From the NCBI GenBank assembly GCA_965208105.1, contig OZ242318.1, positions 4,320,001 through 4,384,000 of the forward strand: a stretch of DNA of 64,000 nucleotides, written 5' to 3'. Source of the DNA: Candidatus Latescibacterota bacterium. GTDB lineage: Bacteria > Latescibacterota > UBA2968 > UBA8231. The notes under the pieces are model-generated. The model did not search any database and was not told the origin of the DNA. It worked only from the letters and a program-made list of their open reading frames with translations. Position 1 is the first letter of the stretch. Each line of letters begins with the position of its first letter. The position numbers and the translations under genes were made by a program. This document shows, in pieces, positions 3,142 through 57,155 of the stretch.

Positions 3142-4977
3142 ATGACAGAAGCAATCCTGCGCGCCGAAGGCCGCACGGCTCCGCCCCACTGGGCGGTGCG
3201 CCAGCGCCACCTGATCGACCTGATGGACCGGGCCGCGGTCCCCTTCACCAGGCACGCGACCCGTCCCGACGGAACCCTGATCCAGCGCACCGTCTGGACG
3301 AGCATGGACGGCACCGACAACGGATACGAGGCCTTCCTGTCGTTTCCCCTCTTCTACCTCCTTGGGGGCAGCGAGTTCATCCACCGCACCGCCCGCAGGG
3401 AGTGGGACGCCATAACCTGGCAGTACGCCAACTACGGCACCGTCGACCGCGAGTTCGTCACCGGCTTCGACTGGTTCCACCACAGCGAGAGCTACACCTA
3501 CATCTACTATCTCGCCATGGCCGACCCCGGGCATTACATCGACCGCACCCGCGCCCTGCGCTACGCCGCCATGTACACCGGGGAGGATCCCCTGGCTCCG
3601 AACTGGGACGCGGAGAAGCGGATGATACGCAGCCCCCTGAACGGCAGCCGCGGCCCGCGCTTCGTCACCACCCGGACCGACTGGGAGTACCACCGGCCGA
3701 TCCTGGCCGGGTACCTCTCCCCGTTCGAGGACATACCCGGCGCCGACAGCCGGGACCCGATGTTCAAGGTCGACTGGACCGACGACGAAACCTTCGCCAG
3801 GGTCCTCGCCCTCATCAACGAGCGCATGACCCGCTGCGACGTGCCCCTGAACCTCAGCGCCGCCAGCATGATCACCAACGCCTACCTGTACACCGGCGAG
3901 GAGAAGTACAGGAGGTGGGTGCTCGACTACCTGGCGAGGTGGGTCGAGCACCGCGACGCCAACGGCGGCATCATGCCGGACAACATCGGGCCCGGCGGCG
4001 GAATCGGGGAGCTCAACAACGGCAAGTGGTGGGGCGGGTACTACGGCTGGCGCTGGCCCCACGGGGCCCGCAACGTCGTCGAGCCGGCCTTCGTCGCCGG
4101 CAGTTGCGCCGCGCTGATGACGGGGGACATGTCGCATCTCGACCTTTGCCGCTCTCAGCTCGACATGCTGTGGTCCCAGCGCCGCGAGATCGACGGGGTG
4201 CCTATGGTCCCGTCCCGGCACGGCGACCGGGGCTGGTTCGACTACCGGCCGCCGGATCCCTACTACTACATCCACCTCTATTATTTGAGCCAGAGCGAGG
4301 AGGACCTCGCCCGCCTCGACGAGCTGTTCCCGGACCGGGACGGGTTCGCCGGCCTGCCGGAAGACTGGGGCGCCGGCAAGGCGGGGATATGTCCGCCCGG
4401 GGCATGGGCGGCTTTCGTCGAGGGGAAGAACCCGGGGTTTCCGGAGCAGGTCCTCGATACGACCTACGGCAGCGTCTGCCGCGCCCTCGACCGGCTCGAG
4501 GCGGACGACAGCGACCCGGAAACGCGGGAGTGCTACCACTTCCAGCAGCTCTGCCCGGTGCTGCCGGAGGGCCTCGTGCAGATGGCCATGGGGACGCCGG
4601 CGGCGGTGTACAACGGCGGCCTGCTGCAGGCTCACCTGCGCTACTTCGACCCGGAGCAGCGGCGCGCCGGGCTGCCCCCGCACGTGGCCGCCCTCGCCGA
4701 CCGCGCCGGCGCGGACCGGGCCCGGGTGACCCTCGTCAACACCGATCCGGTGCAGTCCCGCCCGGTGCTGATTCAGGCCGGCTCCTTCGGCGAGCACGAG
4801 TTCACCGGGGCTTGCGGAACGGACGGCCGCGGGGTAGAGCAGCGGGTGACCGTGGGGGGCAGGCACCTACTCGTCGAGCTGGGAGCGGCGGCGCGCATCG
4901 AGCTCGACCTCGGGATGAAGCGGTTCGTCCACCGGCCTTCGTACGACTTCCCGCCCATGGAGGGAGCATCCGGCTGA
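3142..4977 (+). CDS. Conserved hypothetical protein, possible (alpha/alpha)-barrel carbohydrate-active enzyme
   Basis: 611-aa ORF with strong GC3 bias and RBS GAGG; Trp/Tyr-rich; function not identified. Confidence 0.7.
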   Translation: MTEAILRAEGRTAPPHWAVRQRHLIDLMDRAAVPFTRHATRPDGTLIQRTVWTSMDGTDNGYEAFLSFPLFYLLGGSEFIHRTARREWDAITWQYANYGTVDREFVTGFDWFHHSESYTYIYYLAMADPGHYIDRTRALRYAAMYTGEDPLAPNWDAEKRMIRSPLNGSRGPRFVTTRTDWEYHRPILAGYLSPFEDIPGADSRDPMFKVDWTDDETFARVLALINERMTRCDVPLNLSAASMITNAYLYTGEEKYRRWVLDYLARWVEHRDANGGIMPDNIGPGGGIGELNNGKWWGGYYGWRWPHGARNVVEPAFVAGSCAALMTGDMSHLDLCRSQLDMLWSQRREIDGVPMVPSRHGDRGWFDYRPPDPYYYIHLYYLSQSEEDLARLDELFPDRDGFAGLPEDWGAGKAGICPPGAWAAFVEGKNPGFPEQVLDTTYGSVCRALDRLEADDSDPETRECYHFQQLCPVLPEGLVQMAMGTPAAVYNGGLLQAHLRYFDPEQRRAGLPPHVAALADRAGADRARVTLVNTDPVQSRPVLIQAGSFGEHEFTGACGTDGRGVEQRVTVGGRHLLVELGAAARIELDLGMKRFVHRPSYDFPPMEGASG

Positions 4978-5119
4978 TCCGGGTCCGGGCCGGCAGGCAA
5001 CCAGAATGGATTCGAAGTGTGTCCACGGTGGTGAGGCCGCCCAGTCCGAAGTGCGCCACCCTGGCGCTGCGCTCAGCGCCTTGACCGAGAATCCAAAAAG
5101 GTCCTCATTTCACCTATAC
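4975..5119 (+). mobile_element. IS91/ISCR-like oriIS end, family A copy 1
   Basis: tgatccgg..ggcaaccagaatgga...gcgccttgaccgagaatccaaaaaggtcctcatttcaCCTATAC; matches copies at 11.0, 21.7 and 23.5 kb. Confidence 0.8.
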
Positions 5120-5165
5120 TTCCGTTTCATGAGTCATTCAGGGTAACACGCAAGAGGATCGCACA

Positions 5166-5978
5166 ATGGAAATCTCATTATGTACAGGAGTGTTTGGGCC
5201 GGAAACCAGAGATGCATCCGGCTTTGAGCGCGCTGCAGGAATGGCAGCCGCTGCCGGCTATCGCCTGATCGAACCTTCAAGCTGGCACCTGAGATTGCCA
5301 AATAGCCATTCGGCACTTGCGGCCGCAGGACTCGGGGTCTGGGCGGTGCATGGCAGCTTCGGTTGCGTCGAACCTGGGGCAATCTCCGAATCTGCAGACG
5401 AGCGCCGACATACGCTCGACCGGGAACTGGAATTGCTGCACATGGCGGCAGCTTACGCACCATGCCCCTACGTAATACATTACCTCAACCGTCACAACGA
5501 CCCTGCCGTGGCTGAACGCTGGCGCGACAGTGTTCAGGATCTACTCGTACATGCGGCGGCGCTGCAGTTGACACTGGCAGTGGAAACCGTGCCGTTCAAG
5601 CCTGAAGAGAACGAGCGGTATGCGGATACTGCGGAGGTCGCCGCATTCGTGCGAGCGTTCGATTCGGAGTACCTGCGCGTGTGTGTGGATGTGAATCACT
5701 CTAATCTGCACGAGGATCTTGGCCAGGCAATCAGCAACTGCAGCGGGCAGATATCGGACATTCACATATCCGACAATCATGGAGTGAGGGAACAACACCT
5801 GCAACCGGGCGAGGGCGTGATCGACATGCCCTTTGCACTCGCAGCATTGCGGGAAGCAGGCTACTCCGGCCCGTGCAACCTTGAGAGCAACATTCCTGGC
5901 GGTCTCACCGTCGAATCGCTGAGCGCCCTACGAGTTGCTGCCGAAGAACTTGTGGCTAAGAGCATGTCGGTCTTGTGA
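5166..5978 (+). CDS. Sugar phosphate isomerase/epimerase (xylose-isomerase-like TIM barrel)
   Basis: LAVET, DVNH, HISDN, H..PGEG.ID, LE motifs. Confidence 0.85.
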   Translation: MEISLCTGVFGPETRDASGFERAAGMAAAAGYRLIEPSSWHLRLPNSHSALAAAGLGVWAVHGSFGCVEPGAISESADERRHTLDRELELLHMAAAYAPCPYVIHYLNRHNDPAVAERWRDSVQDLLVHAAALQLTLAVETVPFKPEENERYADTAEVAAFVRAFDSEYLRVCVDVNHSNLHEDLGQAISNCSGQISDIHISDNHGVREQHLQPGEGVIDMPFALAALREAGYSGPCNLESNIPGGLTVESLSALRVAAEELVAKSMSVL

Positions 5979-6126
5979 AGCAAGCCGCGTAATCGCGGCG
6001 GAGCTGATATTCCCAGCTTTGAAGCCTTGGACCTGGGCACCCAGGCGCGTTCCCCTGGCTGTGCGCGTCGATAACATCCGAAGCGTCCCGCAGGTTGGGC
6101 AATCGACCTTGGAAAGGAGTCTTTCA

Positions 6127-10867: not shown

Positions 10868-10989
10868 GGGGCGATCTCCCAGGCTGGAAGGAACCACATG
10901 CCCAGCCATTTGCAGGATTGGGTGAAGAGGAGCCCGTGCTGGCGGCTCTCGCCGCGGCTTGGTGCGAGGGCTCATCGCCACCGGGGCCC

Positions 10990-11188
10990 GCGCCGGGCGG
11001 TACGGCGGGGTGTGCCATCAACGCTCCCTCAGGCCCCGAATTGATCCGGATCCGGGCCGACAGGCAACCAGAATGGACTCCGGGCTCGGTCGAAGGACGG
11101 GCAACCGATCCTCCGGGAGCTGCCTGACCCTGGCGCTACGCCCAGCGCCTTGACCGAGAGTCCAAAAAGGTCCTCATTCTACCTATAC
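10990..11188 (+). mobile_element. IS91/ISCR-like oriIS end, family A copy 2
   Basis: Near-identical to 23570-23770; ends in CCTATAC. Confidence 0.8.
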
Positions 11189-18003: not shown

Positions 18004-18132
18004 ACGGTGCTCGGAGCATTGGCGAACGATTCGGTGCGACGACCAGCGATTCATCAGGGATTCTACCGGACCATTGACAACGGTTTCGGCGAATTACATA
18101 GTACCGATATCGGTGCCTTATTTTTCCTATAC
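18004..18132 (+). mobile_element. IS91/ISCR-like oriIS end, family B copy 1
   Basis: acggtgctcggagcatt...ttgacaacgg...accgatatcggtgccttatttTTCCTATAC. Confidence 0.8.
18074..18102 (+). promoter_or_regulatory. Outward sigma70-like promoter inside the family B end
   Basis: TTGACA-17-CATAGT, conserved across B copies. Confidence 0.6.
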
Positions 18133-21631: not shown

Positions 21632-21690
21632 ATGACTGACTGTGTCTTCTGCGACATCTTGTCAGATAGGACGCCATCGAGCACGGTCGA
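21632..21690 (+). pseudogene. HIT-family N-terminal fragment cut by the element end
   Basis: MTDCVFCDIL...PS reads directly into repeat A3. Confidence 0.65.
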
Positions 21691-21785
21691 AGGACGGGCA
21701 AACGATGCTTCGGGAGCTGCCTGACCCAGGCGGTACGCTCAGCGCCTTGACCGAGAGTCCAAAAAGGTCCCCATTTTACCTATAT
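21678..21785 (+). mobile_element. IS91/ISCR-like oriIS end, family A copy 3
   Basis: cggtcgaaggacgggcaaacgatgc...ttgaccgagagtccaaaaaggtccccattttaCCTATA. Confidence 0.8.
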
Positions 21786-37791: not shown

Positions 37792-37936
37792 CGCAGATCC
37801 CAATCATGGGAAGGCGCCATGATCAGGCACTGGACTGTCGCTGCCTTGATGACCGCACCAGAAACCGCAAGATGGTGCTGATGCGGTAGGCGGGGTAGAG
37901 CTCCCCGGCATTGGCTCAGAGCGATCCGGCAATCAA

Positions 37937-38473
37937 ATGCGAAAGGTCTCGATAATCGGCTGTGGCGGTACGGGGAAGTCTACCCTGGCCGTCGAACTGG
38001 GATCCCTGCTGAATCTGCCGGTCATTCACCTCGATTCCGTTTACTGGGGACCCGACTGGAAAAGGCCCCCGCCGGAGGAATGGCAACGCCGGCATCGGGA
38101 GCTTCTCGCACGCGAATCCTGGATAATGGACGGCAACTACGGCGGCACGATGAAGGAACGGATAGCCGCCAGCGACACGGTAATCCTGCTGGCCCTGTCT
38201 CGTTTCACCTGTCTTTTCCGGGTAATCAAACGGGGGTTAAAGGGCAGGGGACGCAGTCGTCCGGACCTGCATCCTGGCTGCATTGAGAAGCTGCCGGATC
38301 GCGAATTCCTCGAGTGGATCTGGGATTATCCGAAGACGCGTTTGCCAGGCGTATTGCAGCTGCTGGAAGGGGTCATGCACGAAAAGAGGGTCGTGATCAT
38401 GCGGTCCAATGCCGATGTGGCCAGGTTCCTTGACACTCTGGAGATGGGCAGAACGCAGGGTTCAACCCGATAG
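37937..38473 (+). CDS. P-loop kinase, DNA topology modulation protein (FlaR-like)
   Basis: IIGCGGTGKST, HLD..YW, WIMDGNY. Confidence 0.85.
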   Translation: MRKVSIIGCGGTGKSTLAVELGSLLNLPVIHLDSVYWGPDWKRPPPEEWQRRHRELLARESWIMDGNYGGTMKERIAASDTVILLALSRFTCLFRVIKRGLKGRGRSRPDLHPGCIEKLPDREFLEWIWDYPKTRLPGVLQLLEGVMHEKRVVIMRSNADVARFLDTLEMGRTQGSTR

Positions 38474-38529
38474 AACAGTCACGGCACCACAGTTCTCTGC
38501 CCGTTGCCGCGTCGGTCAGTACTGGCTGG

Positions 38530-38586
38530 GCGCAGGATATTTTGCGCATACAGTTGATAATGGCGCATATACGAGCTATATTGCGT
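38530..38586 (+). promoter_or_regulatory. Fic promoter with GCGCA..TGCG inverted repeats
   Basis: TTGATA(38554)-17-TATATT; gcgca-N8-tgcgc and gcgca-N14-tgcgt. Confidence 0.55.
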
Positions 38587-38618
38587 ATATCCTTAGTTTG
38601 GGCAAAATCGAGGACACG

Positions 38619-40022
38619 ATGGCAAGGCGCATCAGGGAAGAGGACCTGCAGGCGATCGAGGAAGTCGTGCGGCCGTACCCGGAGGGCCGGACCGCACGGC
38701 AGATCGGTGATGCCCTGGCCTCGGCGCCGGCCCGCCGAACCCTGCAGTACCGCCTGAAGTCCCTCGTCGACGGCGGTCGCCTGATCATGGAGGGCAAGGG
38801 CCGCTGGGCGAGCTACCGCACCCCCCGGCGGATCTCGGAGGCGGCTCAGCCGGTCGCTTTCAGCTTTGCTACAGGCGTTGCCCGGGGGGAAGTCATACCT
38901 CCGCTGTCCGAAGCCGCGGCCGAGATCCGTGAGCATGTCCGCCAGCCGCTGGAAGCACGTCAGCCGGTCGGCTATGACCGCGCGTTCCTGGATTCGTACC
39001 GGCCCGGAGAAACCTTCTATCTATCGGAGGCGGAACGAGAACACCTTCGAGAAGTGGGCACGCCGAAGGTCCCCGGGCAGCCCGCGGGCACCTACGCCAG
39101 GCGGATCCTGAACAGACTGCTGATCGATCTTTCCTGGAATTCAAGCCGGCTGGAGGGGAACACCTATTCCCTGCTCGACACAACGCGTCTGCTCGAAATA
39201 GGGGAAGAAGCGGAAGGCAAGGAGCGACTCGAAGCGCTGATGATCCTCAACCACAAGGACGCCATCGAGTTCCTGGTCGATGGGGCAGAGGAAATCGGCT
39301 TCAATCGCTATACCCTTCTTAACCTTCACGCGCTGTTGGCGGACAACCTGCTGGCCGACCCGGAGGCGACGGGGCGTCTCAGGCATATCGGCGTGGGTAT
39401 CGCGGGCTCGGTCTTTCATCCGCTGGAGATGCCGCCACTCATCCAGGAATGCTTCGACCAGGTTCTTGCGGCGGCCTCGGCGATCCGCGACCACTTTGAG
39501 CAAGCCTTCTTCGCAATGGTGCAGATTCCCTACTTGCAGCCCTTCGATGATGTCAACAAGCGCGTGTCTCGACTCGCTGCCAACATTCCACTGTTCAAGG
39601 GGAATCTGTCGCCGCTGTCCTTCGAGGACGTGCCTCGCGACCTGTATACCGAAGCCATACTCGGAGTGTACGAGCTGAAACGCATCGAACTGCTGCGCGA
39701 CGTGTTCCTCTGGGCATATGGCCGCTCGGCCGCCCGTTACGCCGCAGTCAGGCAGTCCCTTGGCGAGCCCGATCCATTCCGGATGAGGCACCGCACGGAG
39801 CTGCGCGAGATCGTTGGCGCCGTCGTTCGCGGGCGCATGGACATGAAGCAGGCCGCCGCCCACATCAGCTCCTGGACACAGGAGCACATCGATGCGCGGG
39901 ATGGGGAACGGTTTCGCGAGATTGCCGAGCGCGAACTTCTGAGCCTGCACAAGAGGAACTGCGCTCGCTATCGGGTCACCCCGTCCGAATTCGAGGCATG
40001 GCAGGAAGTCTGGAGGGAGTAG
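38619..40022 (+). CDS. Fic family protein with N-terminal winged HTH
   Basis: RRTLQYRL; SSRLEGNT; Fic motif variant QPFDDVNKRVSR. Confidence 0.9.
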   Translation: MARRIREEDLQAIEEVVRPYPEGRTARQIGDALASAPARRTLQYRLKSLVDGGRLIMEGKGRWASYRTPRRISEAAQPVAFSFATGVARGEVIPPLSEAAAEIREHVRQPLEARQPVGYDRAFLDSYRPGETFYLSEAEREHLREVGTPKVPGQPAGTYARRILNRLLIDLSWNSSRLEGNTYSLLDTTRLLEIGEEAEGKERLEALMILNHKDAIEFLVDGAEEIGFNRYTLLNLHALLADNLLADPEATGRLRHIGVGIAGSVFHPLEMPPLIQECFDQVLAAASAIRDHFEQAFFAMVQIPYLQPFDDVNKRVSRLAANIPLFKGNLSPLSFEDVPRDLYTEAILGVYELKRIELLRDVFLWAYGRSAARYAAVRQSLGEPDPFRMRHRTELREIVGAVVRGRMDMKQAAAHISSWTQEHIDARDGERFREIAERELLSLHKRNCARYRVTPSEFEAWQEVWRE

Positions 40023-40309
40023 GGCTGCCGGCGGTGCCCGCGCCGAGGGCCCCGCCGCAGCCGCAGTTCGAGTTCGTAGCCTGACCTCCTCCGCTATTCG
40101 CTCCCTGCGCCGAGAGCCGTACGGGGGAGTGCGCCCTCGAGTACAAGATTGACCCCTGAAACGCGCCGAAATCCTTTACAACGGTGCTTGGAGCATTCCG
40201 GAACGATTCGGTGCGACGACCAGCGAGCCATCAGGGACCCTACCGGACCCTTGACAACGGTTTCAGCGAATGGCATAGTACCGATATCGGTGCCTTATTT
40301 TTCCTATAC
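40011..40309 (+). mobile_element. IS91/ISCR-like end, family B copy 4
   Basis: EGVGLPAVPAPRAPPQPQFEFVA* plus tail; TTGACA(40251)-17-CATAGT; ends in TTCCTATAC. Confidence 0.85.
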
Positions 40310-40310
40310 A

Positions 40311-40875
40311 TCTCAGAGGCCTTTGCATGCACGAATACTCCGAAGTCTCATTCCATCCGTGGGTTGGGAGGGACTGTCTGCAAAGCCGATTCGGGTCCGT
40401 GTGCTAGTATTGGGTGAGTCTCACTACGGCGGGGATGATGTACCTCCGGACTTTACGTCGAAGGTCGTGGAAACTGGGACAAGAAACCCGTTACCCTTTC
40501 TTTACGGTCATTACCAAGATTCTTCTTGGAAACACAGGCTGGATCACCAATGAGGATCGCGCAGGTGTATGGGAAGACGTGGCGTTCTACAACTTCGTGC
40601 AGGACTTCGTAGGGAATCAGCCGAGAAACCGGCCGACCTTTCGCCAGTGGGTTGATGCTCAGGAGCCCTTCGAGACGGTGCTAGCAGCGCTTCGACCCCA
40701 TGCGGTGCTCATCCTTGGATCTGATTTGGCGGACCATATGCTGTTCCTCAATAGCGAACGGCAGTCCATTCGATATGGGCGACAGGAGGCCGAGGCTGTA
40801 GCCGGCATCATTCAACACCCCTCAGGGCCCATGAGATACAGCGAGGGTATACCGGCCTTCGAGAACCGGCTGTGA
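40311..40875 (+). pseudogene. Frameshifted hypothetical (UDG-like fold) gene
   Basis: VLVLGESHY in one frame, WEDVAFYNFVQ..RPT..HPS in another. Confidence 0.6.
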
Positions 40876-40944
40876 AGGGCTCGGGAACTAGGCGGGCCGT
40901 GACAGGCGCAGCCCTATGGCGACGCAACAGGAGTTAATTGGGAC

Positions 40945-41748
40945 GTGGAATTTGTCCGGTATGTGATTGCTTTCTTCCTCATTGGATGGGGCGGGTCGAT
41001 CATTGGGACCATCCTCTTTGTGGCCGTCTCTCCTTTTGTAGGAGCGCTTCGAAATACGAATCCGGGGCGAGCACTAACAGCTGTCACGAACGGAGCTGGC
41101 GTTCTTGGGGCGATCTATGCCTTTACCGTGATCTGCAGTTGGACAGGGGGCGAGGCTAAGCTCAGCATGTTGGCGCTTCCTCTGTTGCTGACGCTGAAGA
41201 ACATCATCTGGCGGATCAGGAGGGCCCAAGTGGCGGATTCGGTCCCGGGACTGGTACTGTCCGGTGACCGGGACTTGCGGTCCGGGGTGGTAAGAACGGA
41301 ACGGATGAACTTGATGGCAGATGTGATGGCCTTCGCCTTAGGCGTCTTCATAGTTGGCATTCCGAACGGTGGCCCAGATCTCTCGGTGAAGAGACTTGTC
41401 GCGCGGTGTGTCCAGGAGCCAATGGTGGTTGTCCAGGATTACTACAGTCGGCCGCACGTCGGCCCGGGGGTGTTGTCGCGGGTTCCAGTCAGTCAAGTCC
41501 TAGAAACGGCCCGTCGGAACAGAATGGTGGAATTGAGTGAGCTGTCCGGTGAGCACCGAGTGCTTGTCGAGGCACGTATGGAGGAGCTTGCTCGGTGGAT
41601 AGACATGAACACCACCGTTACGGCCAAAGGGCCCGCTGGACCGTTAGCCGAAGTCGGTGGGGGAGTGACAACCGTGGAGCTGCCTGACTCCGAGGCAGTG
41701 AACTCAAAGGCAAGGGCCCTCTGTGTCGAGCTATTTGAGACTTGGTAG
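40945..41748 (+). CDS. Hypothetical membrane protein
   Basis: 267-aa ORF with about four hydrophobic segments. Confidence 0.5.
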   Translation: MEFVRYVIAFFLIGWGGSIIGTILFVAVSPFVGALRNTNPGRALTAVTNGAGVLGAIYAFTVICSWTGGEAKLSMLALPLLLTLKNIIWRIRRAQVADSVPGLVLSGDRDLRSGVVRTERMNLMADVMAFALGVFIVGIPNGGPDLSVKRLVARCVQEPMVVVQDYYSRPHVGPGVLSRVPVSQVLETARRNRMVELSELSGEHRVLVEARMEELARWIDMNTTVTAKGPAGPLAEVGGGVTTVELPDSEAVNSKARALCVELFETW

Positions 41749-41959
41749 TGGGGACGGCGAGTGGTCGTACTAGCGGTGGGTCCGAGGCCGGAGTTGCACG
41801 GAAACCGGCGAGCGGGTGGCGCTGACCGAGCGGCAGATGGTGCAGCTGGGCTTCGGCGGCCACTCCTCCTGCGAGCCGCTGGACCTGCCGGAGAAAGCGG
41901 CCGACCTTCTGGCCCAGGTGTTCCCCCTTCTACTTCCCCATCTGGGAGCTGGACCGCTC

Positions 41960-42310
41960 ATGAATCGCACCTTCCCAGTTGACCTGCAGACCCACACGAC
42001 CTTCTCGGACGGCAGGGACACGCCGGAAGAGCTGGTCTCCAAGGCGGCGGCCTCCGGCATCCGCGTGCTCGCCGTGACGGACCACGACAGCGTTCAGGGC
42101 GTGGCTGCGGCCAGGGCCGCCGGCGCGAAGGCGGGTGTGCACGTACTCCCGGCCATCGAGCTGAGCACGGCCAAAGAGGAGGATCGTGAATGACCGAGAC
42201 CATCGAGAAGCCGGACCTCGGGTACAGGTAGGGGTTCGCCACAAGCGAGCTGGATGCGATGTCAAAGTGCCTGGAGGTGCACGGCTTCGCCATCATCAAG
42301 GAGGTGTGCT
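41960..42310 (+). pseudogene. Truncated PHP-domain gene joined to a PhyH-like N-terminal fragment
   Basis: DLQTHTTFSDG, AVTDHD, ELST then a break; LEVHGFAIIKEV with an internal stop upstream. Confidence 0.65.
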
Positions 42311-42764
42311 GTCGAGGATAGGACGGATAGGGGTTATCCGTCGTTAGTCGATGTCCTACAGTGAAGGCGTTTCGGGGCTTTCGCGGGGGCGGACGGGGTG
42401 GAAGTGCTAGAGTTTGAGGGGGTTAAGCGGAGGGCGGGAGGACCTGCGGAGCCGCACGTGGAGTGGTCTGGCCTGGAACGGCGGCGTCGCCCACCGATCG
42501 CAGCGGTAGAGCGCCGCGCCGGGCTGGCCGCCGGCGAGCGAGGACGGGGTCTGGCTAGGACGTCTCGGTGGCCGACGGCTGGCTAGGCCGCCTCGTCGAG
42601 TGGAGCTGTCGGTCGAGGCGGGCTGGAGAGAAGCGCTCACGCGCCGGCAGACCGACGCCGGGAATACCTCTTGAATGGTTAGCGTCTCAATCTGGGCCTT
42701 CCCCCTCACCTTTCCGAACGATTCGTCTCCTGCCCTCGATCGCGAAATCCCAGCAAGGTGAAAC

Positions 42765-44435
42765 ATGACGACGAAATTCCTTAAGCATTTTCCAAAGCCG
42801 TTGCTTGATGATCTTGTCGCCTGTCGCTGGCTTCCAATTGTTGGAGCCGGATTGTCGAAAAATGCTGATCTCCCCTCAGCGACCATGCCGCTTTGGGCTG
42901 AGCTTGGTAGGAATCTCGCCATGGACATGCAAGATTATGAATATGTCTATCCCATTGATGCTATTTCGGCTTACGCGCATGAGTTCGGTCGTCCAAAACT
43001 CATCGAAAAGTTGTCCGATCTGCTACTCATAGGTGAGGCTCGCCCAGGCAAAACACACCGTGCATTCTGCTCCATCCAATTCGATATCGTTTGCACCACC
43101 AATCTGGACTTCCTCCTTGAGAGGCAGTACGAGCGCGCCCTCAAGTCTTGCACGCCCCTCATTGGTGAAGATCAGCTGTCCATCAAGCTGCAGGAATCAA
43201 GCGTGGCGCTATTGAAGCTGCATGGAGACCTCAACCACCCAGACCGCTTAGTTGCCACTGAAGAAGATTACGACACCTTTCTTGAGCGCTATCCTAGCGT
43301 CGCGACATATCTCGCCAACCTCCTCATCACCCGAACAGCTGTCTTGATCGGATACAGTTTGGATGATCCAGACTTCCGTCAAGTGTGGCAAGTCGTCGGA
43401 GAACGACTTGGTAAGGCACGACGGATGGCCTACGCACTATGTGTTGGCGCGCGGCCTGCGGACGTGACACGGTTCGAACGTCGGGGGGTAAAGGTCATAA
43501 ATTTGCCTGGAAAGAAGAGCAAGTATGGAGAGATTCTCTCTGAAGCCTTTGGCGAGCTAAAGAACTATTGGCAGGAACAGATCGTACCCGAGAGTCGGGT
43601 TATAGAAGAAGAGCCATTGCAAGAGCTTTCGCTTCCAAGAGGCTCTGCTACTAGGCTTTGCTTCTTTGCGCTCCCCCTATCGGCGCACCCATTCTATCGT
43701 ATGCGGGTGTTCCCACTAGTGCGAGAGGTAGGGCTCGTCCCTGTGACCGCAGATGAAGTCATCTCTCCGGGCGAAAGTGTCGTCGCGAAAGTAGAAGCTC
43801 TAATCTCTCGAGCGTCTTTCGTCGTTGTCGATGCGTCTAGCGAGTTCACATTGGCTGAAGCTCGCATGGCGCTTGGGCAAAATGAGCCAGGTAGGCTTTG
43901 CGTAATCATTGAAGAAGGTGCCCCCATTCCCGTTGAGATCCAGCGCCCCGAAATCCTTCGCGAGTCAGATTTGGCATCAGAGGAAGACGCACTTGTTCCC
44001 ATTGAGCGCCAGCGTATTAAGGTCCTCAGCAGGCCTGATCTTGTGTCCGTGGAAGTTGGACAATTCCTTCGCGATTTGGAAGAGTGGCTTCGAGAAGCGG
44101 TGGGCGGACTGAAGCCGAGGCTATCTGGAGAAACGCGGCGTCTCTTTCACGCCCGAGAGTACAGGGCAGCGGTCATTTCAGCGATTACGAATCTCGAGAC
44201 GGTATTGAGGGAGCGGCTTGATGTGCCAATCAGCAGAGGCAGAAAGTTCATATCTCTGCGAGAAATGCTCGATACCGCTGATAAAAAAGGTTTGCTTGGA
44301 AAGTATAGAGCCGCCCAAGTCTCGCAATGGCTGAAGATTCGTAATTATGTGGTGCACGGCCATGGATCTGTATCCGAAAAAGCTGCGCGGGAGATTGTAC
44401 GCGGAGTCGAGGAGATTCTGGGCCCTACTGCGTAG
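42765..44435 (+). CDS. SIR2-like domain protein with TIR/NDT-like middle and HEPN-like C-terminus (defence candidate)
   Basis: IVGAGLS, TTNLD, KLHGD, IGYSLDDPD; CFFALP..ADE..ISRASFVVVDAS; RNYVVH. Confidence 0.8.
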   Translation: MTTKFLKHFPKPLLDDLVACRWLPIVGAGLSKNADLPSATMPLWAELGRNLAMDMQDYEYVYPIDAISAYAHEFGRPKLIEKLSDLLLIGEARPGKTHRAFCSIQFDIVCTTNLDFLLERQYERALKSCTPLIGEDQLSIKLQESSVALLKLHGDLNHPDRLVATEEDYDTFLERYPSVATYLANLLITRTAVLIGYSLDDPDFRQVWQVVGERLGKARRMAYALCVGARPADVTRFERRGVKVINLPGKKSKYGEILSEAFGELKNYWQEQIVPESRVIEEEPLQELSLPRGSATRLCFFALPLSAHPFYRMRVFPLVREVGLVPVTADEVISPGESVVAKVEALISRASFVVVDASSEFTLAEARMALGQNEPGRLCVIIEEGAPIPVEIQRPEILRESDLASEEDALVPIERQRIKVLSRPDLVSVEVGQFLRDLEEWLREAVGGLKPRLSGETRRLFHAREYRAAVISAITNLETVLRERLDVPISRGRKFISLREMLDTADKKGLLGKYRAAQVSQWLKIRNYVVHGHGSVSEKAAREIVRGVEEILGPTA

Positions 44436-44547
44436 ATAAGCGAGCCCATACTTTTGTAGGACATGTGGATCGATACATTCCACCGCCGGCACTGACCATA
44501 GCGCGACATCCACCGCTTGTTCTTTCTTCCCGTATCGTTGCGGCCGG

Positions 44548-44715
44548 CGGGGCGCGGAAATCGAGCCGGACCGTCGCACCTTCGAGGTCAAGCGCGCCTC
44601 GGAGTTGATTCTCCAAGTATCGTTCGTAGTGGGCCGGGACGCCATCCGGCCAGCTGGTGTACACGGCAATTTTTAGCGGCTTGGTTTCAACCTGGGTAGC
44701 GTAATAGAAGCGCAC
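44548..44715 (-). pseudogene. der: C-terminal KH-like fragment of ribosome GTPase Der/EngA
   Basis: RFYYATQVETKP......YERYLENQLR..LDLEG..VRLDFR. Confidence 0.75.
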
Positions 44716-45411
44716 CGGCCCCTGGTGACTGCGCCTCCATGGTGGCGCGCTGAGCCTCCAAGGGCCTTGACCACGCCGGGTCGAGCTACGGTCGTGGTGA
44801 GCCAGCCCTTATCGACTCCGCCCGCCTTCGCGGTGCCAACGCTCGCCAGCCAAGAATCGGGGGCTTCCGTCCTCACGCCAACGTTTCCGGGTATTTCTGC
44901 GCTCTGATCCCCCGTACTCGTCCTCGAATCGCCCAAGCCCGCAGGCCATTGTGATGGCTCCTTACCTCCACGCGCTACAACGATCAGGCCGCCTCAGGTG
45001 ACTCACCAAGTCATGGAAGCCGGTCGCTTTCCCGCAGATACGTCGCCATCCCTTCTTGCAGAGACGCATGGAGCTGGAGGAGAATACCCAAGCGACCGTA
45101 GAGTTGCCGAAGCTGGACTATCGGTTCGTCCGTGTCTTCGTCGTCTTCCAGGGCCAATCCGAGCAAACCAACGGCCGTCAATAACTGGCCTGGAAGTCCA
45201 GATATCGTTCGAGCGCATCGTATTGTCTGGCACGCTCGACCAACCAATCGTAGTCCAGTTACGGCCCTGCCTGACTGGCTTGCGCTACGCACCACGCAGC
45301 CCTGGAAACCTCCGGGGGACTCAACCCGAAATCCAGACTAAAGCTGGTACAGGGGGCGTCCCGCGTTGCATTTCGATCAGCACCTGCAAATGCGTTCCCG
45401 ATCTTATCTCG

Positions 45412-45868
45412 CGCTTCGAGCGCTCCTCCCTGCGCCCATCGCCTGGGGTGGGTGGCCCTGCTCGCCCCCATGTTTGCCACCGACCTCAGCGCCTGCCCGG
45501 CCGGCCTGTGGCGGTCGCCTGAGGATCATCGCTGCTCTGACCGATCCAGCCTCGGTTCGGACCTATTTGGAGGGCGTAGGGCTGCCGGCGGTGCCCCCGC
45601 CGAGGGCCCCGCCTCAACCCCAGTTCGAGTTCGCCGCCTGACCTCCTCCGCGATTCGCTCCCTGCTCCGAGCGCCGTACGGCGGAGTGCGCCCTCAAGTA
45701 CCAGATTGACCCCTGAAACGCGCCGAAATCCTTTACAACGGTGCTCGGAGCATTGGCGAACGATTGGGTGCGACGACCAGCGATTCATCAGGGACATCCT
45801 ACCGGACCCTTGACAACGGTTTCAGCGAATGGCACAGTACCGATATCGGTGCCTTATTTTTCCTATAC
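45412..45868 (+). mobile_element. IS91/ISCR-like end, family B copy 5 (about 75 transposase codons plus tail)
   Basis: CGGRLRIIAALTDPASVRTYLEGVGLPAVPPPRAPPQPQFEFAA*; ends in TTCCTATAC. Confidence 0.88.
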
Positions 45869-46104
45869 ATCGTGCCGGTGGCGAACCAATTCGTATGCGA
45901 CGAACTTATCATACGCTGGCTAAGAGAGACCAACGTCCTGCGAGTTGTGGAGTCAATCGACAAGGGTCTGGTGCAAGCGACATTCGACCCACAGATCATC
46001 GAAGGATGAACCTGATGGTTCGCCTGCGAGCCTTGATCTTTGACATTGAATGTGTTAATCGCCGGTATGGTGCCGGCGTGTTAACCTCAAACAAGGAGGT
46101 GCAA

Positions 46105-46422
46105 ATGCACCGAGTTGTCCTCCTGCTTGGGACGTTCCTTATTGGGGCCACCGTAGGGACTGATATTCCTTGGGCCGATAAGGACACCACCAAGCAGGAG
46201 CTATCTAGACCCAAGTGGCCGAAGGGTAAGACAGTCGAAGAGCGACTGACGATCCTTGAGGCCAGGGTCAACGCAGTGGAAGAGGGGATATGGGAGGCAA
46301 CCGGGTTGATAGATAAACAGGATCGCAAGATCGTGGATGCTATCAACAAGGCCTCTCTCAGAATTGAGATTAATACTGAGGCTATACAGCGGCTAGTGCA
46401 AATCGTGGACAGGTATCACTAA
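46105..46422 (+). CDS. Small putatively secreted coiled-coil protein
   Basis: RBS AAGGAGGT, hydrophobic N-terminus, heptad-like C-terminus. Confidence 0.55.
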   Translation: MHRVVLLLGTFLIGATVGTDIPWADKDTTKQELSRPKWPKGKTVEERLTILEARVNAVEEGIWEATGLIDKQDRKIVDAINKASLRIEINTEAIQRLVQIVDRYH

Positions 46423-46450
46423 AACCTGAGGGGTAGGGCTGAGGAGTCGA

Positions 46451-46912
46451 CGGCGTCGGACCGTCCTTCGAGCGCTCCTCCCTGCGCCCATCGGCTGCGG
46501 TGAGCGACCCTGCTGGAGCGGGTGTTTTCCTCCGACCTCAGCGCATGCGCGACCTGTGGCGGGCGCCTGCGGATCGTCGCCGCCCTGATCGATCCGGCCT
46601 CGATCCGGACCTATCTAGAGGGGGTAGGGCTGCCGGAGGTAACCCCGCCGAGGGCCTAGCCCGCAACCGCAGTTCGAGTTCGCCGCCTGACCTCCTCCGC
46701 GATTCGCTCCCGGCGCCGAGAGCCGTACGGTGGAGTGCGCCCTCAAATACCAGGTTGACTCCTGAACCGCGCCGAAATCCTTTTCAACGGTGCTCGGAGC
46801 ATTGGCGAACGATTCGGTGCGACGACCAGCGATTTATCAGGGACCCTACCGGACCCTTGACAACGGTTTAAGCGAATGGCATAGTACCGATATCGCCTTA
46901 TTTTTCTTATAC
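46451..46912 (+). mobile_element. IS91/ISCR-like end, family B copy 6
   Basis: Direct repeat of 45412-45868 with indels; ends in ttcttatac. Confidence 0.88.
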
Positions 46913-47976
46913 ATCCGCCAACCGCGCCTGCCCCGGACCGGCGCCGCTCCGGCTCCCGACGGTGTGGGGCGGATTCGAGAAGCCGAGACTGGATTTGATG
47001 GAAAGCTGCTCGCGGCGATGGCCGATGAGTGACTGCGAGATCAGGTGCGGGGAGTGTTTCCGAGGTGCACGTGCCGGCCCGTTCGTGCTAGCTTTTGTTC
47101 ATGACCGGATCGACCGACAACATCGAGGCCGTCGCGCGTGCCGTGAGGGCGAAGAGCCTCGCGCACATGGAAAGAGGGAGGAGCAACTCGCTACCGACGC
47201 GGAAATGTACTGGCATGTCGGGGCCACGTACCTGGAAGCCGGAGTGATGGACGAATCCGGGCGAGAGATCGGGGGCCTGAGCTGGGTCGAGAAACTGGAC
47301 ATCACCGGCGATTGGCTTCGGCGGCACCCGGAGTCCTCGGCGACGTGGCGGAAGGCGCGGTACGGATCGCCTCTACCTCGGACGAGAAGGGCAGGATCGG
47401 CAGTAGATCGAGGGACGGCGACAGGCGAGGACAGGACGGGTCGGGATGTGGAATCCAGGCGGTTTCGGTGCGATGACGATTTTCACTCCCGTCGGGCGGG
47501 CACGCGGGAAAATGTCGAGCGGAGACAACGGATTGATGCGGGCCCGGCGACGCGGCTACCGCCAAAACGACGAAACTGGCAGAAACATGGTTGAGGGCAT
47601 GTGGCAGCGCATTGCAGAGTAACCCCGAACACCTCCAAGTCTTAACTGGCCGTATGGCACGAGGATGGACTCCAGGGATGCTTCAGACTTGGAATCCACT
47701 AGGTTTCTATATGATGACCGGCGTTCCAGCCGGTGCGGTATTGTTGTGCCGAAATACCAGCTCAACCCCGTGCTTGCAGCCATGACCGGGGTCCGATTAG
47801 ACGGTCGATGGCATATGAGGCAAAAAGATCGTGAATGAACAAAATGCTACCCAACTGTAGTCGCGAATGCCCCGGATTTGAGCTTCCAGTCCACCGGGCA
47901 AGTACTCGCAAGGTTGTCTGCAAGCCAACAAGAGAAAAGCAACTAAATTTGCTTCATGGCTTAGAGAGTCCACCCA

Positions 47977-48849
47977 ATGCTGAATAACTTCTTTTCGCTA
48001 AATGGACAGATTGAAACAATGAGTGATTCGGTAGTCCTGGATACTCACTTTAGAACCAGCAGTTCTTTGGAAAACACGTTGTATCAACCATCCAGTATTG
48101 CCGTTGCTCAAAGAACACTATTCAAAGCCAGGACATTTAAGAACGTAAGCTTCTCTAAGACATTATTTCGAAGAATGACGTTTACAGATTGCGAATTTGA
48201 AGACTGCCTCTTTATCGGAGCAAGGTTTGCAGAAGTTCAATTTCATAGATGCAAGTTTGTCAATTGCAATTTCTACAAATGCTCCCTAAGCAAGTGCTAC
48301 TTGGATCCGAACTGCTTTAGTTTCAGCCCTTCTCTCAATAAAACCCATGCAAATGTTATGACAGAGTTATTTCACAGTTTGCTTGTGAATGCGAAGTCAG
48401 AAAGTCAACATCGGCACGCAGAAGATGCCGATATCATGTTTCGAAGATGGCTGCTGTGGCAGCGATCATACGAACGGAGAACAAAGAAGATAAGCTATTT
48501 TCGATTCGCGAAGGAGTGGATAATAAATAAGGCGGGAGATTGTGTCTTTGGATTTGGCTATCGGCCCTTCAAATTTGCTATGTCCAGCATACTATTTTTG
48601 CTAATTTGCAGCGTCCTGACTCATGTCTGGTGGTCTAAACTTGGAATGCACAATAGTAATGGAGCGATTGAAGATTATTCATTTATCAGTGCTATATACT
48701 ATACGGTAGTGGTCACTACGACGTTAGGATTTGGGGACATAATACCAACGACAGTGCCTGGTCAATTATTCGCTTCGTTTCTATCCGTTGTAGGATTGAT
48801 CTGGTTTAGTCTTTTGGCGGCGCTGGTCATCCGAAAAGTGGTGCGCTGA
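47977..48849 (+). CDS. Pentapeptide-repeat plus two-TM K+-channel-like protein (Hailong HalA-like)
   Basis: FKNVSF..FTDCEFEDCLF..FHRCKFVNCNF; GFGYRP; filter TTTLGFGD; AT-rich. Confidence 0.8.
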   Translation: MLNNFFSLNGQIETMSDSVVLDTHFRTSSSLENTLYQPSSIAVAQRTLFKARTFKNVSFSKTLFRRMTFTDCEFEDCLFIGARFAEVQFHRCKFVNCNFYKCSLSKCYLDPNCFSFSPSLNKTHANVMTELFHSLLVNAKSESQHRHAEDADIMFRRWLLWQRSYERRTKKISYFRFAKEWIINKAGDCVFGFGYRPFKFAMSSILFLLICSVLTHVWWSKLGMHNSNGAIEDYSFISAIYYTVVVTTTLGFGDIIPTTVPGQLFASFLSVVGLIWFSLLAALVIRKVVR

Positions 48850-49835
48850 TGGAGTATTGGGGAAAATGTCAGTCTGAGGCAATCTTCGGCTCGTCGTCTA
48901 GGCGTGATTCTGACCGACTTAGCGATAAAGACTATTTGATCATAGACAGTCGACCGGAAGTAAGAAGAAGACGTCGGTTTGAGCTGGAACAAATGGGCTG
49001 GTCGGTGGCTTCTTACTCGTGGGCCAGACTTGGTAGCCTTGCGAGGCAAAAGGCACTGTTTGTCCAACACTTAAAGTTGGAGGCTCTGGTAGTGAAGGAT
49101 GGCGCAAACCGACTAAGGCATTCGCTAAATTGCTATTCGCCCAAGGCAGATTACGATGTAGAAATCAACCAAGCGGGCAAAATTATGGTATCCATGATAA
49201 ATGAAGACATGGAGTTAGGACCGACGAATTGGATATTTGATGTGATTGCTGTCAATGTCCGGAATTTGGCGATATTGGCGCTTGCGAACCGCGGCGAATA
49301 TGTATTCTCGTATAATGATGCAATGGAGCGACTTGTAGTAGTTTATGGTTTGCCGGTGGACGATGCACGTCGGCTCTTAAAGCTCAGAGAAATCAAGGCA
49401 AGATATAGGAATGGATGCTACTATTCTGTGTTGACGCAAAGGGAAGTCGATGAGTTGCTAGGGTCGGTACAGAGGTGTGTCGAGTACGTGGGATGCTCCT
49501 TTGTCGATATCGTAGGAACGAGTGATTTTCTATTGCACTCGGAGGTAAAGGATCTTTACTTTAGGTCGAGATTGATTGAAAGAGACGTACTAGGCAGTGT
49601 CCCGGTCAAGGAATCATACCGAGAGGATTGTGAATATTTATCTAGACGGATTCTTCGCAGAATTAGAAAACCACGAGACTACTTGTGGCAATTCGAACAT
49701 GACCTCGAAACGATTCAAGAAGTCTCGAGTCTTCGAAGAATTTCTGAACCGTTGGATCTGGTGCGTGGGTTAGTACAATCAAGGGATTGCAGTGTTTTCC
49801 CTCACGGACTGGAGCGGCCTTGCCTATTGAGGTAA
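48849..49835 (+). CDS. Pol-beta-superfamily nucleotidyltransferase (Hailong HalB-like)
   Basis: IFGSSSRRDSDRLSDKDYLII (GS..DxD); TGATG coupling to the channel gene. Confidence 0.7.
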   Translation: MEYWGKCQSEAIFGSSSRRDSDRLSDKDYLIIDSRPEVRRRRRFELEQMGWSVASYSWARLGSLARQKALFVQHLKLEALVVKDGANRLRHSLNCYSPKADYDVEINQAGKIMVSMINEDMELGPTNWIFDVIAVNVRNLAILALANRGEYVFSYNDAMERLVVVYGLPVDDARRLLKLREIKARYRNGCYYSVLTQREVDELLGSVQRCVEYVGCSFVDIVGTSDFLLHSEVKDLYFRSRLIERDVLGSVPVKESYREDCEYLSRRILRRIRKPRDYLWQFEHDLETIQEVSSLRRISEPLDLVRGLVQSRDCSVFPHGLERPCLLR

Positions 49836-49873
49836 TCTGGCGGCGGGGTTTGAGGTGTATTTCGGTTGAAGTT

Positions 49874-50150
49874 CACAGCGTTGAAACGGGTTCCGGTCAG
49901 GTTGATTGATATCCGGCGTGGCGAGATTAGGTGACGCATTCGTCGGACTCGAAGCTCTGCAGGAGGCCGCGGAACGCCACCCGCAAGGTGGAGACGGTGC
50001 GGGCAGCCCTCTTGCGCATCAACGCGCTTGGCTCAGCGAGCACGGCGGCAGATACGCAAGCGCAGGGCCGAGATCACCTCGTGGACCCCAACGGAATTGT
50101 GCGCCACGAGGTTGTCAGTGATCACAATGTCGCCGAGCTGGAGGGTTGGC
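49874..50150 (-). mobile_element. IS630-family transposase C-terminal relic
   Basis: Minus strand TLQLGDIVITDNLVAH..YLPP..RAARTV..F..DEC..HAGY, with disruptions. Confidence 0.75.
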
Positions 50151-50212
50151 TCATGGCCCCCGGGCCCGTGACCCCGGCCGCACCGTGCCCGCCAAACCGA
50201 TTGATTAGTCCA

Positions 50213-50306
50213 CGGCGGTGGACCGAGCTTCGAGTGCTCCGCCCTGGGCCCATCGGCTGCCGTGGGCGACTCTGCTGGCGGGGGTGTTTTCCTCCGATCT
50301 CAGCGC
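50213..50306 (+). mobile_element. IS91-like transposase remnant
   Basis: DRASSAPPWAHRLPWATLLAGVFSSDLSA. Confidence 0.75.
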
Positions 50307-50325
50307 TGCAAAGGAAAGACAATCG

Positions 50326-54866: not shown

Positions 54867-54893
54867 GGTGTGTTGCTGCCAGGGTCGCAGTTG

Positions 54894-56689: not shown

Positions 56690-56763
56690 GGTACCTCTCG
56701 AGAAGACGCCCTCTGGTAGGGTGGCTGGACGTCCTGTGCGCTCTCCACCACTTCGACTCCGTC

Positions 56764-56898
56764 TCAGAATGCTACGTGGTCCATTGTCTCAGCGGCAGCA
56801 TCTTTGGGGTCCGGATAATGCCACGCCGCGTCCGGATTCTGCTCCTCTCCAACCACGACATTATAATAGTGGGCGACATAATAGTGGGCGACGCCTTT
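56764..56898 (-). pseudogene. DUF427 C-terminal fragment
   Basis: KGVAHYY..V...NPDAAWHYPDPK.AA...DHVAF; 15-bp tandem duplication. Confidence 0.75.
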
Positions 56899-57025
56899 GC
56901 CTCGGCGTGCAGCGCTCGAGCAGCTCCGGTGTGGGTTCTCCGGATTGCGATTTGACGAAATCTTCCCAAAACATACACAATCCGGCGCGCCGGTCGATAG
57001 ATAGTCAATACGAAAGGACGAACCC
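56892..57025 (+). repeat. Repeat C copy 2
   Basis: Direct repeat of 53579-53733. Confidence 0.75.
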
Positions 57026-57082
57026 TTACCGGCGCGGATGTCCCCCTGGTGTCGGACACGGCCGCCAAAACGCCGCCCGACC

Positions 57083-57155
57083 GGCAAACGATGCCCCTTG
57101 GGTGTGTTCGGCGCCTTGACAAGAGGGCCGAAAAGGGGCCTAATTTTTCCTGTAC
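57083..57155 (+). mobile_element. Divergent family A oriIS-like end, copy 5
   Basis: ggcaaacgatgc..ggcgccttgacaagagggccgaaaaggggcctaatttTTCCTGTAC. Confidence 0.65.

Follow-up and report, generated by a model that had tools for sequence, protein, structure and literature searches.

The 64,000-nucleotide stretch analysed here, which we call the window, covers positions 4,320,001-4,384,000 of the genome of a sponge-associated Candidatus Latescibacterota bacterium (G000, a single 4.85-Mb contig). It belongs to an island that spans 83 kb or more (about G000 4.302-4.385 Mb) and in which small groups of accessory genes are separated by decayed, co-oriented remnants of an ISCR-like insertion sequence (IS) of the IS91 family. 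We refer to the right (oriIS-side, 3') ends of these remnants as tails, and give features in window coordinates unless G000 or G001, a genome of the same genus (5.9 Mb, one contig), is named. Crude gene picks comprise 54 open reading frames (ORFs), 38 on the + strand and 16 on the other. A Pfam scan of 60 window ORFs identified five xylose-isomerase-like TIM barrels, four PhyH dioxygenases, two mandelate racemase-like enzymes, two aldo-keto reductases, methyltransferases, a Gfo/Idh/MocA oxidoreductase, an amidohydrolase and an FAD oxidase, together with two ankyrin-repeat proteins and PIN, PolB-like exonuclease, Fic, SIR2 and BNR proteins.

Tails were counted with nhmmer profiles built from the last 100 nt of the window's own tails. 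Eleven lie in the window, all eleven on +, ten with sharp ends (5119, 11188, 18132, 21784, 23764, 27161, 40309, 45868, 46912 and 57154) and one with a truncated end (28703). They are spaced 1.0-11.6 kb apart and agree with direct-repeat families of 100-270 bp that recur along the same strand; when two of these families were compared by BLAST with the whole of G000, their copies were confined to a few regions. Ends resembling TTCCTATAC mark oriIS in the IS91 family, and with at most one mismatch this motif occurs 13 times in the window, against a mean of 4.3 in shuffled sequence (0/100 shuffles reach 13). Searches by tblastn with a 476-aa full-length relative (P0001), which served as both query and reference, found four transposase-only pieces inside the window, all on +, and another just past it (64336-64712, +). 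The remnants in the window are:

2423..2680, +: transposase-only remnant, aa 293-373 of the 476-aa reference (P0001 tblastn, 60% identity, E 1e-16)
4975..5119, +: B-type tail, 145 bp, ending CCTATA-CTTC; the same-site G001 copy has 1525 bp
10928..11188, +: B-type tail, combining 66 bp from inside the transposase gene with the terminal 202 bp, ending CCTATA-CTTC
18004..18132, +: A-type tail, 129 bp, ending CCTATA-CATC
21678..21785, +: B-type tail, 107 bp, ending CCTATA-TGTA, which is not a CWTN tetranucleotide
23501..23770, +: B-type tail, about 262 bp, including the transposase C-terminus (...PQFEFVA and stop)
26888..27161, +: A-type tail of module M, nhmmer end 27161
28612..28703, +: A-type tail without its last bases; the sequence from 28704 on corresponds to the 3' end of an IS701-family / group-II-intron-like element
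32892..33021, +: transposase-only remnant, aa 406-446, which continues into a complete tail in G001
35532..35666, +: transposase-only remnant, aa 399-443 (tblastn with P0001)
36661..36686, +: sliver of 26 nt with an exact but weak match to an A-type tail (E 9e-6)
40009..40309, +: A-type tail, 301 bp, ending CCTATA-CATC
45410..45868, +: A-type tail, 458 bp, transposase aa ~404-476 and then the non-coding end, ending CCTATA-CATC
46444..46912, +: A-type tail, about 465 bp, ending CTTATA-CATC
50155..50307, +: transposase-only remnant, aa 379-429 (tblastn with P0001)
57092..57155, +: C-type tail, 63 bp, ending CCTGTA-CTTA; the same-site G001 copy has 373 bp

A deletion at 4975 fused the tail there to ORF 3142-4977, so that the TGA stop of this ORF falls inside the tail. 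A + strand gene begins 35 bp past the tail end at 11188, and a 6-nt duplication precedes the tail end at 23770, for which the nhmmer end is 23764 and the CCTATAC end 23770.

A reading made previously from the sequence alone (the sequence-only reading) had proposed that these repeats are IS91/ISCR-family oriIS-side ends, that they form a co-oriented array on + and that copies stand 1-12 kb apart. All three proposals agree with our data, through the family match and terminal tetranucleotides described below, through the + strand placement of every tail, transposase piece and sliver, and through the measured spacing. Its list of ten sharp ends, one copy without a terminus and three transposase-only pieces also stands, although the piece at 2423-2680 was omitted and the range given was too short, as the array continues with tails at window -15709, -6259 and -370. 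The sliver that it lists at 36661 is an exact 26-nt match, albeit one with weak statistical support.

Repeats of this kind could mislead assembly, and if they had made chimeric joins the array would not be real. Tails are indeed break points of short-read contigs, and G000 has a contamination score of 8%. Against this, G000 was assembled as one contig, a homologous array with the same tail architecture occupies the corresponding place of the independent congener G001, with shared blocks largely in one order, and short-read contigs of X1, possibly the source sample, span the tail-to-cargo joints at 11188, 18132 and 27161 with no difference. We regard such an artefact as extremely improbable. 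The window is found at 90-100% identity in contigs of four metagenome runs, broken at the tails, and it or parts of it occur in 20 runs from 10 studies among the runs listed, which include sponge and marine metagenomes; contig joints with short sides (20-29 nt) in repeats were left out of the read evidence. In all four metagenome runs, the segment 17809-17975, located between cargo and tail where the window and G001 diverge, shows very high summed contig depth and many loose ends, and is probably a small, highly repeated element.

Ends, anatomy and family of the element

Alignment of the eleven ends separates three tail subfamilies, A (18132, 27161, 28703, 40309, 45868 and 46912), B (5119, 11188, 21785 and 23770) and C (57155), which have in common a ...CTTGAC... 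block and the end ...ATTTTNCCTATAC. Among the 74 tails of G000 and the first G001 array, 66 have readable ends, and in 56 of these CCTATA is followed by a CWTN tetranucleotide, which has a background frequency of 2.6% in the genome. CTTC is the most frequent (20), followed by CTTT (10), CATC (8), CTTG (7), CTTA (4), CATT (3), CATA (3) and CATG (1), with CTTN found for subfamilies B and C, and CATN for A. Homology between tails stops 2-9 nt past CCTATA, mostly at 2-4 nt. The conserved end is thus best read as CCTATA plus a tetranucleotide, which corrects the terminus given in the sequence-only reading. Such tetranucleotides are consistent with those of IS91, IS801 and IS1294, for which PMC13181058 describes a specific tetranucleotide beside oriIS and no target duplication.

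Upstream of the non-coding end, the coding part terminates in PQFEFAA or PQFEFVA and a stop. The best transposase fragment in G000 (235 aa, G000 2,549,989-2,550,693) retrieves 476-aa proteins with the domains PF14319 and PF04986, the best being P0001, to which it is 92% identical over the aligned part. P0001 itself has both the N-terminal zinc-binding domain (PF14319) and the catalytic Y2_Tnp domain (PF04986), while Y2_Tnp matches within G000 are only partial, in five places and with up to 31.7 bits (cut-off 20.9). P0001 matches the NCBIfam ISCR clade Ia model over residues 9-454 with E 1e-105, at 354 bits against a curated cut-off of 925, and the IS91 equivalog at 104 bits against a curated cut-off of 125. 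As both scores fall under the curated cut-offs, the element is no named ISCR, and its sequence identifies it as a distant ISCR-like member of the IS91 family.

The sequence-only reading suggested a search for an intact transposase; G000 has none, its 32 tblastn pieces including no complete copy, but a cognate gene is present in the congener. G001 contains 138 transposase pieces, of which one is an intact gene for a 476-aa ISCR-like protein (G001 1,760,250-1,761,677) and another, near-complete, lies within its homologous array (G001 3,636,114-3,637,427). An intact element at locus L023 of G001 is about 1.79 kb long, with a gene of 1431 bp and a right end 224 bp past the stop codon. Its left end (...CTTCACACTCC) starts some 135 bp upstream of the ATG and is unlike the right end; it is also found in two further G001 copies (3623451 and 3638751), and three other aligned sequences match it partly. 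The element accordingly combines the domain pair, two unlike ends of which the right one is conserved and sharp in the 66 readable copies, and a tetranucleotide beside oriIS, as members of the IS91/ISCR group do.

The A tail contains a 6-bp stem, GTACCGATATCGGTGC, and folding of the last 73 nt compared with shuffled sequence gives z = -0.25 (A), -1.74 (B) and -2.74 (C), no clear advantage over the shuffles. Rfam at gathering thresholds gave nothing in the window. A-type tails also carry an outward-reading TTGACA-17-CATAGT about 30 nt before the end, as in tail 18004..18132, where this sigma-70-like pair (18074-18102) is followed by a hairpin and T-run (18101-18116); the promoter scan gave no match in B and C tails. 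Outward promoters in the oriIS end of ISCR1, described in PMC13393415, resemble this motif, which is here a consensus match only.

Clustering, single orientation and erosion

The sequence-only reading asked whether copies across the genome cluster with one orientation, and the tails do. G000 has 41 tails by nhmmer, of which 36 lie in four clusters, each with a single orientation, and five lie elsewhere:

G000 4.304-4.377 Mb: 14 tails, all +
G000 2.488-2.547 Mb: 12 tails, all -
G000 1.004-1.080 Mb: 7 tails, all +
G000 0.789-0.803 Mb: 3 tails, all +

In G001, 33/33 tails of the homologous 140 kb are on +, and all 17 tails are co-oriented in the array homologous to the G000 2.5-Mb cluster. The element occurs in at least 19 of 61 sampled genomes of the family and in at least 8 of 18 genera, and hits within some tens of kb of each other share a strand in G010, G016, G038, G060, G063, G065 and G071.

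Replication direction was considered as the cause of this orientation. Cumulative GC skew has its minimum at about 2.2-3.0 Mb (origin) and its maximum at about 0.38 Mb (terminus near 0.4 Mb). An origin near 2.2-2.5 Mb would be compatible with the + tails at 0.79-2.0 Mb and the - tails at 2.49-3.93 Mb. The 14 + strand tails at 4.30-4.38 Mb contradict the pattern of the others, and replication direction was rejected as a general rule because of this misfit.

The history of the ragged 5' ends can be approached through same-site pairs, in which tails of the two genomes were matched if the DNA downstream of them was 80% or more identical over 50 nt. In all eight pairs the G000 tail is the shorter, with 45-211 bp in G000 and 192-1790 bp in G001; the pairs are 211 and 412 bp, 45 and 215 bp, 154 and 496 bp, 152 and 1015 bp, 93 and 1790 bp (the intact G001 element), 145 and 1525 bp, 129 and 192 bp, and 63 and 373 bp. 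A further pair, 27161 and G001 3,699,445, was missed by the flank rule because the downstream DNA differs; its joint is common to both genomes (272 and 279 bp). The consistent shortening in G000 shows that 5' truncation is erosion in place after insertion, further advanced in G000. The intact G001 element matches two separate G000 remnants 19 kb apart, which fits recombination between two copies.

Truncation by the transposase itself was rejected. Short right-end fragments of IS801 can arise by transposition, and then begin with a tetranucleotide, fragments from one-ended transposition having an intact right end and a target-like tetranucleotide at the left end (PMC3189936). Here, among 72 5' joints (the tails of the joint table minus the two copies used as references), one begins with CWTN (G000 4313741, CATC), while nearly all joints differ and have no other motif. 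PMC3189936 attributes most natural IS801 fragments to reorganisation and not to one-ended transposition, a conclusion which agrees with in-place erosion in our array. The ragged 5' ends are consequently no signature of the Helitron-like, non-autonomous units proposed by the sequence-only reading, given the 8/8 pairs.

Turnover of gene modules

The array has been remodelled extensively, and the two genomes differ in module content and also in module order, which the sequence-only reading had suggested comparing between strains. Blocks shared by the window and G001 are 91.5-98.9% identical and largely in the same order, and are interrupted by at least seven G001-only segments, at window 12187/8, 13424/6, 16849, 19687, 58540, 59931 and 62821. 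Conversely, a 12.5-kb stretch of the window (37821..50293, +), which carries three A tails, stands where G001 has 238 bp, and in the searches run only its tails match anywhere in G001. Left joints of the indels lie 0-139 bp past a stop codon, and right joints 7-40 bp before a start codon where one follows; at window 13424/6 the whole intergenic spacer is 11 bp, where G001 has 3.9 kb. The spacers concerned measure 11-146 bp, and insertion in G001 accounts for such tight spacers more readily than numerous deletions that happen to stop at gene borders would. For two of the inserts, the non-tail parts have no match in five genomes searched for donors.

Module M (23812..27161, +) begins with CTTG and contains a DUF6817 gene, a 379-aa ORF without Pfam match, an aldo-keto reductase gene (- strand) and its own A-type tail. 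The order is M (23812-27161), P, N (28704-33027) in G000, and N, M in G001. M has kept its own cargo-to-tail joint in both genomes, while its neighbours differ on both sides; it stands directly after CCTATA-CAT in G001, and after a B tail plus 41 nt in G000. Elsewhere, cargo paralogues start 3, 6 and 47 nt past an oriIS end, and a gene-fragment paralogue is joined to a tail where its uninterrupted copy has CATT at the matching place. A second array has four tails in 20 kb in G000 and nine tails in 45 kb in G001, with no cargo shared between flanks that are 85-89% (upstream) and 99% (downstream) identical. Duplicates within G001 (99.1-99.9% identity) end at tails. In other genera, homologues of neighbouring window genes are on separate contigs or megabases apart.

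Two local observations may be added. On the reverse strand of G001 1,736,100-1,741,000, near-identical units (99.5-99.9%) of 583 bp, each consisting of 223 bp and a 360-bp tail ending CCTATA-TTTN, are spaced 778 bp and 3.6 kb apart, and look like recent local duplication in a genome that still has a transposase. Window 54755-56659 is inverted in G001, and the segment with the inverted genes is flanked by a 98-bp direct repeat (53643-53740 and 56935-57032, 95% identical) which holds a TTCCTAAAC-like motif and may be the end of another, more decayed element.

One explanation for these differences is that the elements landed independently, decayed and never moved cargo, the two genomes having diverged through deletion, tail-to-tail recombination and unrelated transfer. 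Erosion in place is what this would predict, the match of one intact G001 element to two G000 remnants fits recombination of two copies, a 12-nt direct repeat surrounds a tail-only indel, and natural IS801 fragments stem mostly from reorganisation (PMC3189936). However, it gives no reason for co-orientation of 33/33, 17/17, 14/14 and 12/12 tails or for paralogous cargo starting a few bases from oriIS ends, leaves the changed order of module M unaccounted for, and by deletion alone would need an ancestor with all the unshared cargo of both arrays. We consider it improbable.

We think it reasonably probable that the island is a hot spot for a single family of rolling-circle (HUH) insertion sequences, with a fossil array of co-oriented ISCR-like elements. 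The data establish the family, the sharp ends and their tetranucleotide, the clusters of one orientation, the lack of a transposase in G000 and its presence in the congener, the turnover of modules and the erosion in place; movement of cargo by rolling-circle events, and enforcement of the orientation, are inferred. Complete elements of about 1.8 kb would have entered the island, always in one orientation within it; such an element begins with CTTC at its left end, encodes a transposase of 476 aa, and has at its right (oriIS) end ...CCTATA beside CTTN or CATN. Ordinary deletions would have stripped their 5' parts in place, leaving the sharp right ends between small groups of accessory genes. 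The tails, together with the transposase for as long as it persisted, would have made the island plastic by two routes, one being recombination between direct tails, and the other one-ended rolling-circle events that run from a tail to the next tetranucleotide or the next upstream tail. Between them, the two routes could account for gains, losses, duplications and changes of order among the gene modules. In a co-oriented array, a one-ended event would be expected to copy whatever lies between two ends, and module M and the paralogues that start 3-47 nt past an end would fit such a unit. One-ended events of this kind have been shown experimentally for IS801 (PMC6354349): a transposase acting in trans can move any fragment that carries ori801, and the events finish at GAAC or CAAG, or precisely where the next IS801 ends. 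They also make deletions, and copies recombine with each other. As no transposase is left in G000, the array there is extinct, a fossil that continues to shrink.

Several observations weigh against this interpretation. Rolling-circle movement of cargo is read from assembled contigs, with no event or circle junction observed, and the scarcity of tetranucleotide starts among the 5' joints does not favour one-ended transposition. The G001-only segments in five indels (cases 1, 2, 4, 5 and 6) have the form of 75-760 bp of other DNA, a tail, and then 24 bp to 5 kb of other DNA, where simple insertion of cargo plus tail would predict otherwise. One segment of 311 bp consists of a tail alone and has an imperfect direct repeat of 12 nt on its two sides, which suggests slippage or illegitimate recombination rather than transposition. 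With two genomes compared and no outgroup, the direction of the indels is unpolarised. In other genera, tails or transposase pieces within 1.5 kb on either side of cargo homologues were found at 0/8 loci examined, and the replication direction indicated by GC skew leaves the single orientation unexplained.

The sequence-only reading went further, proposing that non-autonomous modules of cargo plus truncated tail are copied in trans and inserted head-to-tail at resident ends, which would amount to an integron-like library without IntI or attC. Strict co-orientation in every cluster and in several genera is consistent with this, as are module M, bounded by CTTG on its left and its own oriIS on its right with different neighbours in the two genomes, and the paralogous cargo that starts 3, 6 and 47 nt past an oriIS end. 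The gene after a tail is co-directional in 58/74 cases and within about 100 bp in 27 of those (crude calls), A-type tails have the outward TTGACA-17-CATAGT, the oriIS end of ISCR1 has outward promoters (PMC13393415), IS801 one-ended events may end exactly at the end of the next copy (PMC6354349), and G001 retains an intact transposase. Module M, with its conserved joint, its CTTG start and its different neighbours, supports the idea of self-contained modules; the five indels read at sequence level do not have the form of cargo plus tail. In-place truncation in 8/8 pairs and the tetranucleotide start in 1/72 fragments also stand against mobilised modules, as does the lack of a promoter match in B and C tails, and without a transposase nothing in G000 would now be mobilisable. 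Exact stacking at resident ends was rejected: no left-end copy read sits at a resident CCTATA junction, and the left-end copies (G001 3638694, its duplicate 3623451, and L023) lie about 100-170 bp past a co-directional gene, the L023 element also being about 70 bp inside an old tail. There is no sign of a dedicated, integron-like system for capture or expression. Overall, we find modules mobilised in trans in an integron-like manner to be partly supported, and such an origin of the array to be possible but unlikely, with the integron-like reading as a minority possibility.

A different element stands exactly at the same kind of ends. In G001, an element of about 2.0 kb lies exactly after the CCTATA of an oriIS end in all three of its copies (G001 3,657,906; 3,690,275; and 5,471,786, at loci L047, L048 and L045), one after a B tail and two after A tails. 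It starts with GTGCG, its first ~270 nt match the Rfam model group-II-D1D4-6 in full (135 bits, gathering threshold 49), and its protein is an IS701-family transposase, which scores 180 bits against an NCBIfam cut-off of 150; domain V/VI is not detectable in the element, which may be an intron, an IS or a chimera. In the window a remnant of its 3' end runs from 28704 to about 28745, after the truncated tail at 28703, whose same-site copy in G001 has the ~2.0-kb element exactly after CCTATA. Group II introns are known to target the attC sites of integrons, which this placement echoes. It is conceivable, if doubtful, that the oriIS end, or its context of hairpin and tetranucleotide, is a preferred entry site that fixes orientation. 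Co-oriented arrays would then extend themselves as an HUH-nuclease analogue of integrons, with tails as recombination sites, some of them with outward promoters, and would be parasitised by the IS701-family/group-II-like element.

The cargo is in keeping with an accessory island. Between tails, 19707-23064 contains two ankyrin-repeat genes, one of them fused to a GNAT acetyltransferase domain. The window-only stretch 37821-50293 carries a Fic-domain gene, a SIR2 (ThsA-like) gene, a PHP fragment and an ion-channel/pentapeptide segment of 45% G+C; by PADLOC the Fic protein is PDC-S04/SoFic-like (E 3e-13) and the SIR2-domain protein ThsA-like (E 3e-26). Recent transfer is suggested for the Fic part, whose DNA is 89-93% identical to that of another genus in the family, and in G018 a 30-aa transposase remnant (E 1e-5) lies 47 bp before the Fic gene.

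Comparison with known systems

In the literature on the IS91 and ISCR elements, oriIS arrays and sponge symbionts that we consulted, no such arrays are described, although supplementary tables may hold relevant data. Integron cassette arrays resemble the island in their compact, co-oriented gene units, a repeated structured site, and content that varies between relatives. They differ from it in that the island has no attC or attI, its repeats are decayed transposon ends of very unequal length, and 16 of its 54 genes are on the other strand; the Pfam scan of 60 window ORFs gave no tyrosine recombinase. In Helitrons, the gene is oriented oppositely relative to the initiating end when compared with IS91-type elements. 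The Pfam annotation of P0001 (PF14319 and PF04986 only) includes no helicase domain, and the truncations in our array are deletions in place. What Helitrons do have in common with the elements described here is HUH rolling-circle transposition, with capture of neighbouring DNA when the end signal is missed (PMC4778049).

IS91 itself belongs to the same transposase superfamily, with the same two Pfam domains and two unlike ends. Its oriIS adjoins the tetranucleotide CTTG or GTTC, its insertion does not duplicate the target, and it undergoes one-ended transposition (PMC13181058). P0001 falls under the IS91 equivalog cut-off, however, and the tetranucleotide differs. ISCR1, ISCR2 and ISCR8 are closer in that ISCR clade Ia of NCBIfam is the best protein-family match, and variable genes directly beside the oriIS end, as well as multiple or tandem copies of ISCR plus cargo, are described (PMC13393415, PMC6218425 and PMC10819877). 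In contrast to ISCR regions, the island has no class 1 integron context and no resistance genes, and its cargo varies from unit to unit instead of being one amplified gene.

The nearest parallel may be found in IS801/CRR1 of the P. syringae virulence plasmids, likewise of the IS91 family (PMC6354349 and PMC3189936). Many truncated IS801 copies keep the right (ori) end beside accessory genes, with up to eight ori801 per plasmid, a target-like tetranucleotide adjoins the ori end, the transposase acts in trans, and one-ended events and recombination between copies remodel the region. The arrays described here differ in several respects: they lie on chromosomes, are far bigger, with 14 tails in 83 kb in G000 and 33 in 140 kb in G001, and are strictly co-oriented. 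Two species have them in homologous positions, and among 18 genera of one family they recur in 8 or more, with CTTN or CATN as tetranucleotide and with metabolic paralogues, ankyrin and defence-like genes as cargo instead of virulence genes.

These islands hold the genes that differ most between close relatives, among them metabolic paralogues, genes for ankyrin-repeat proteins and defence-like genes of the Fic and SIR2 types. If their single orientation reflects target choice, the arrays bear on the old question of how ISCR cargo comes to stand beside oriIS, and the intact transposase of the congener makes both the target-choice and the integron-like readings testable. Most of what is known about ISCR and IS91-family elements comes from plasmids of resistance and virulence, on which captured genes are flanked by a small number of copies, whereas here dozens of co-oriented ends occupy chromosomal islands in several genera of a family from sponge and marine metagenomes. 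As such, the array is a scaled-up chromosomal variant of the IS801 and ISCR regions, and an unusually large one.

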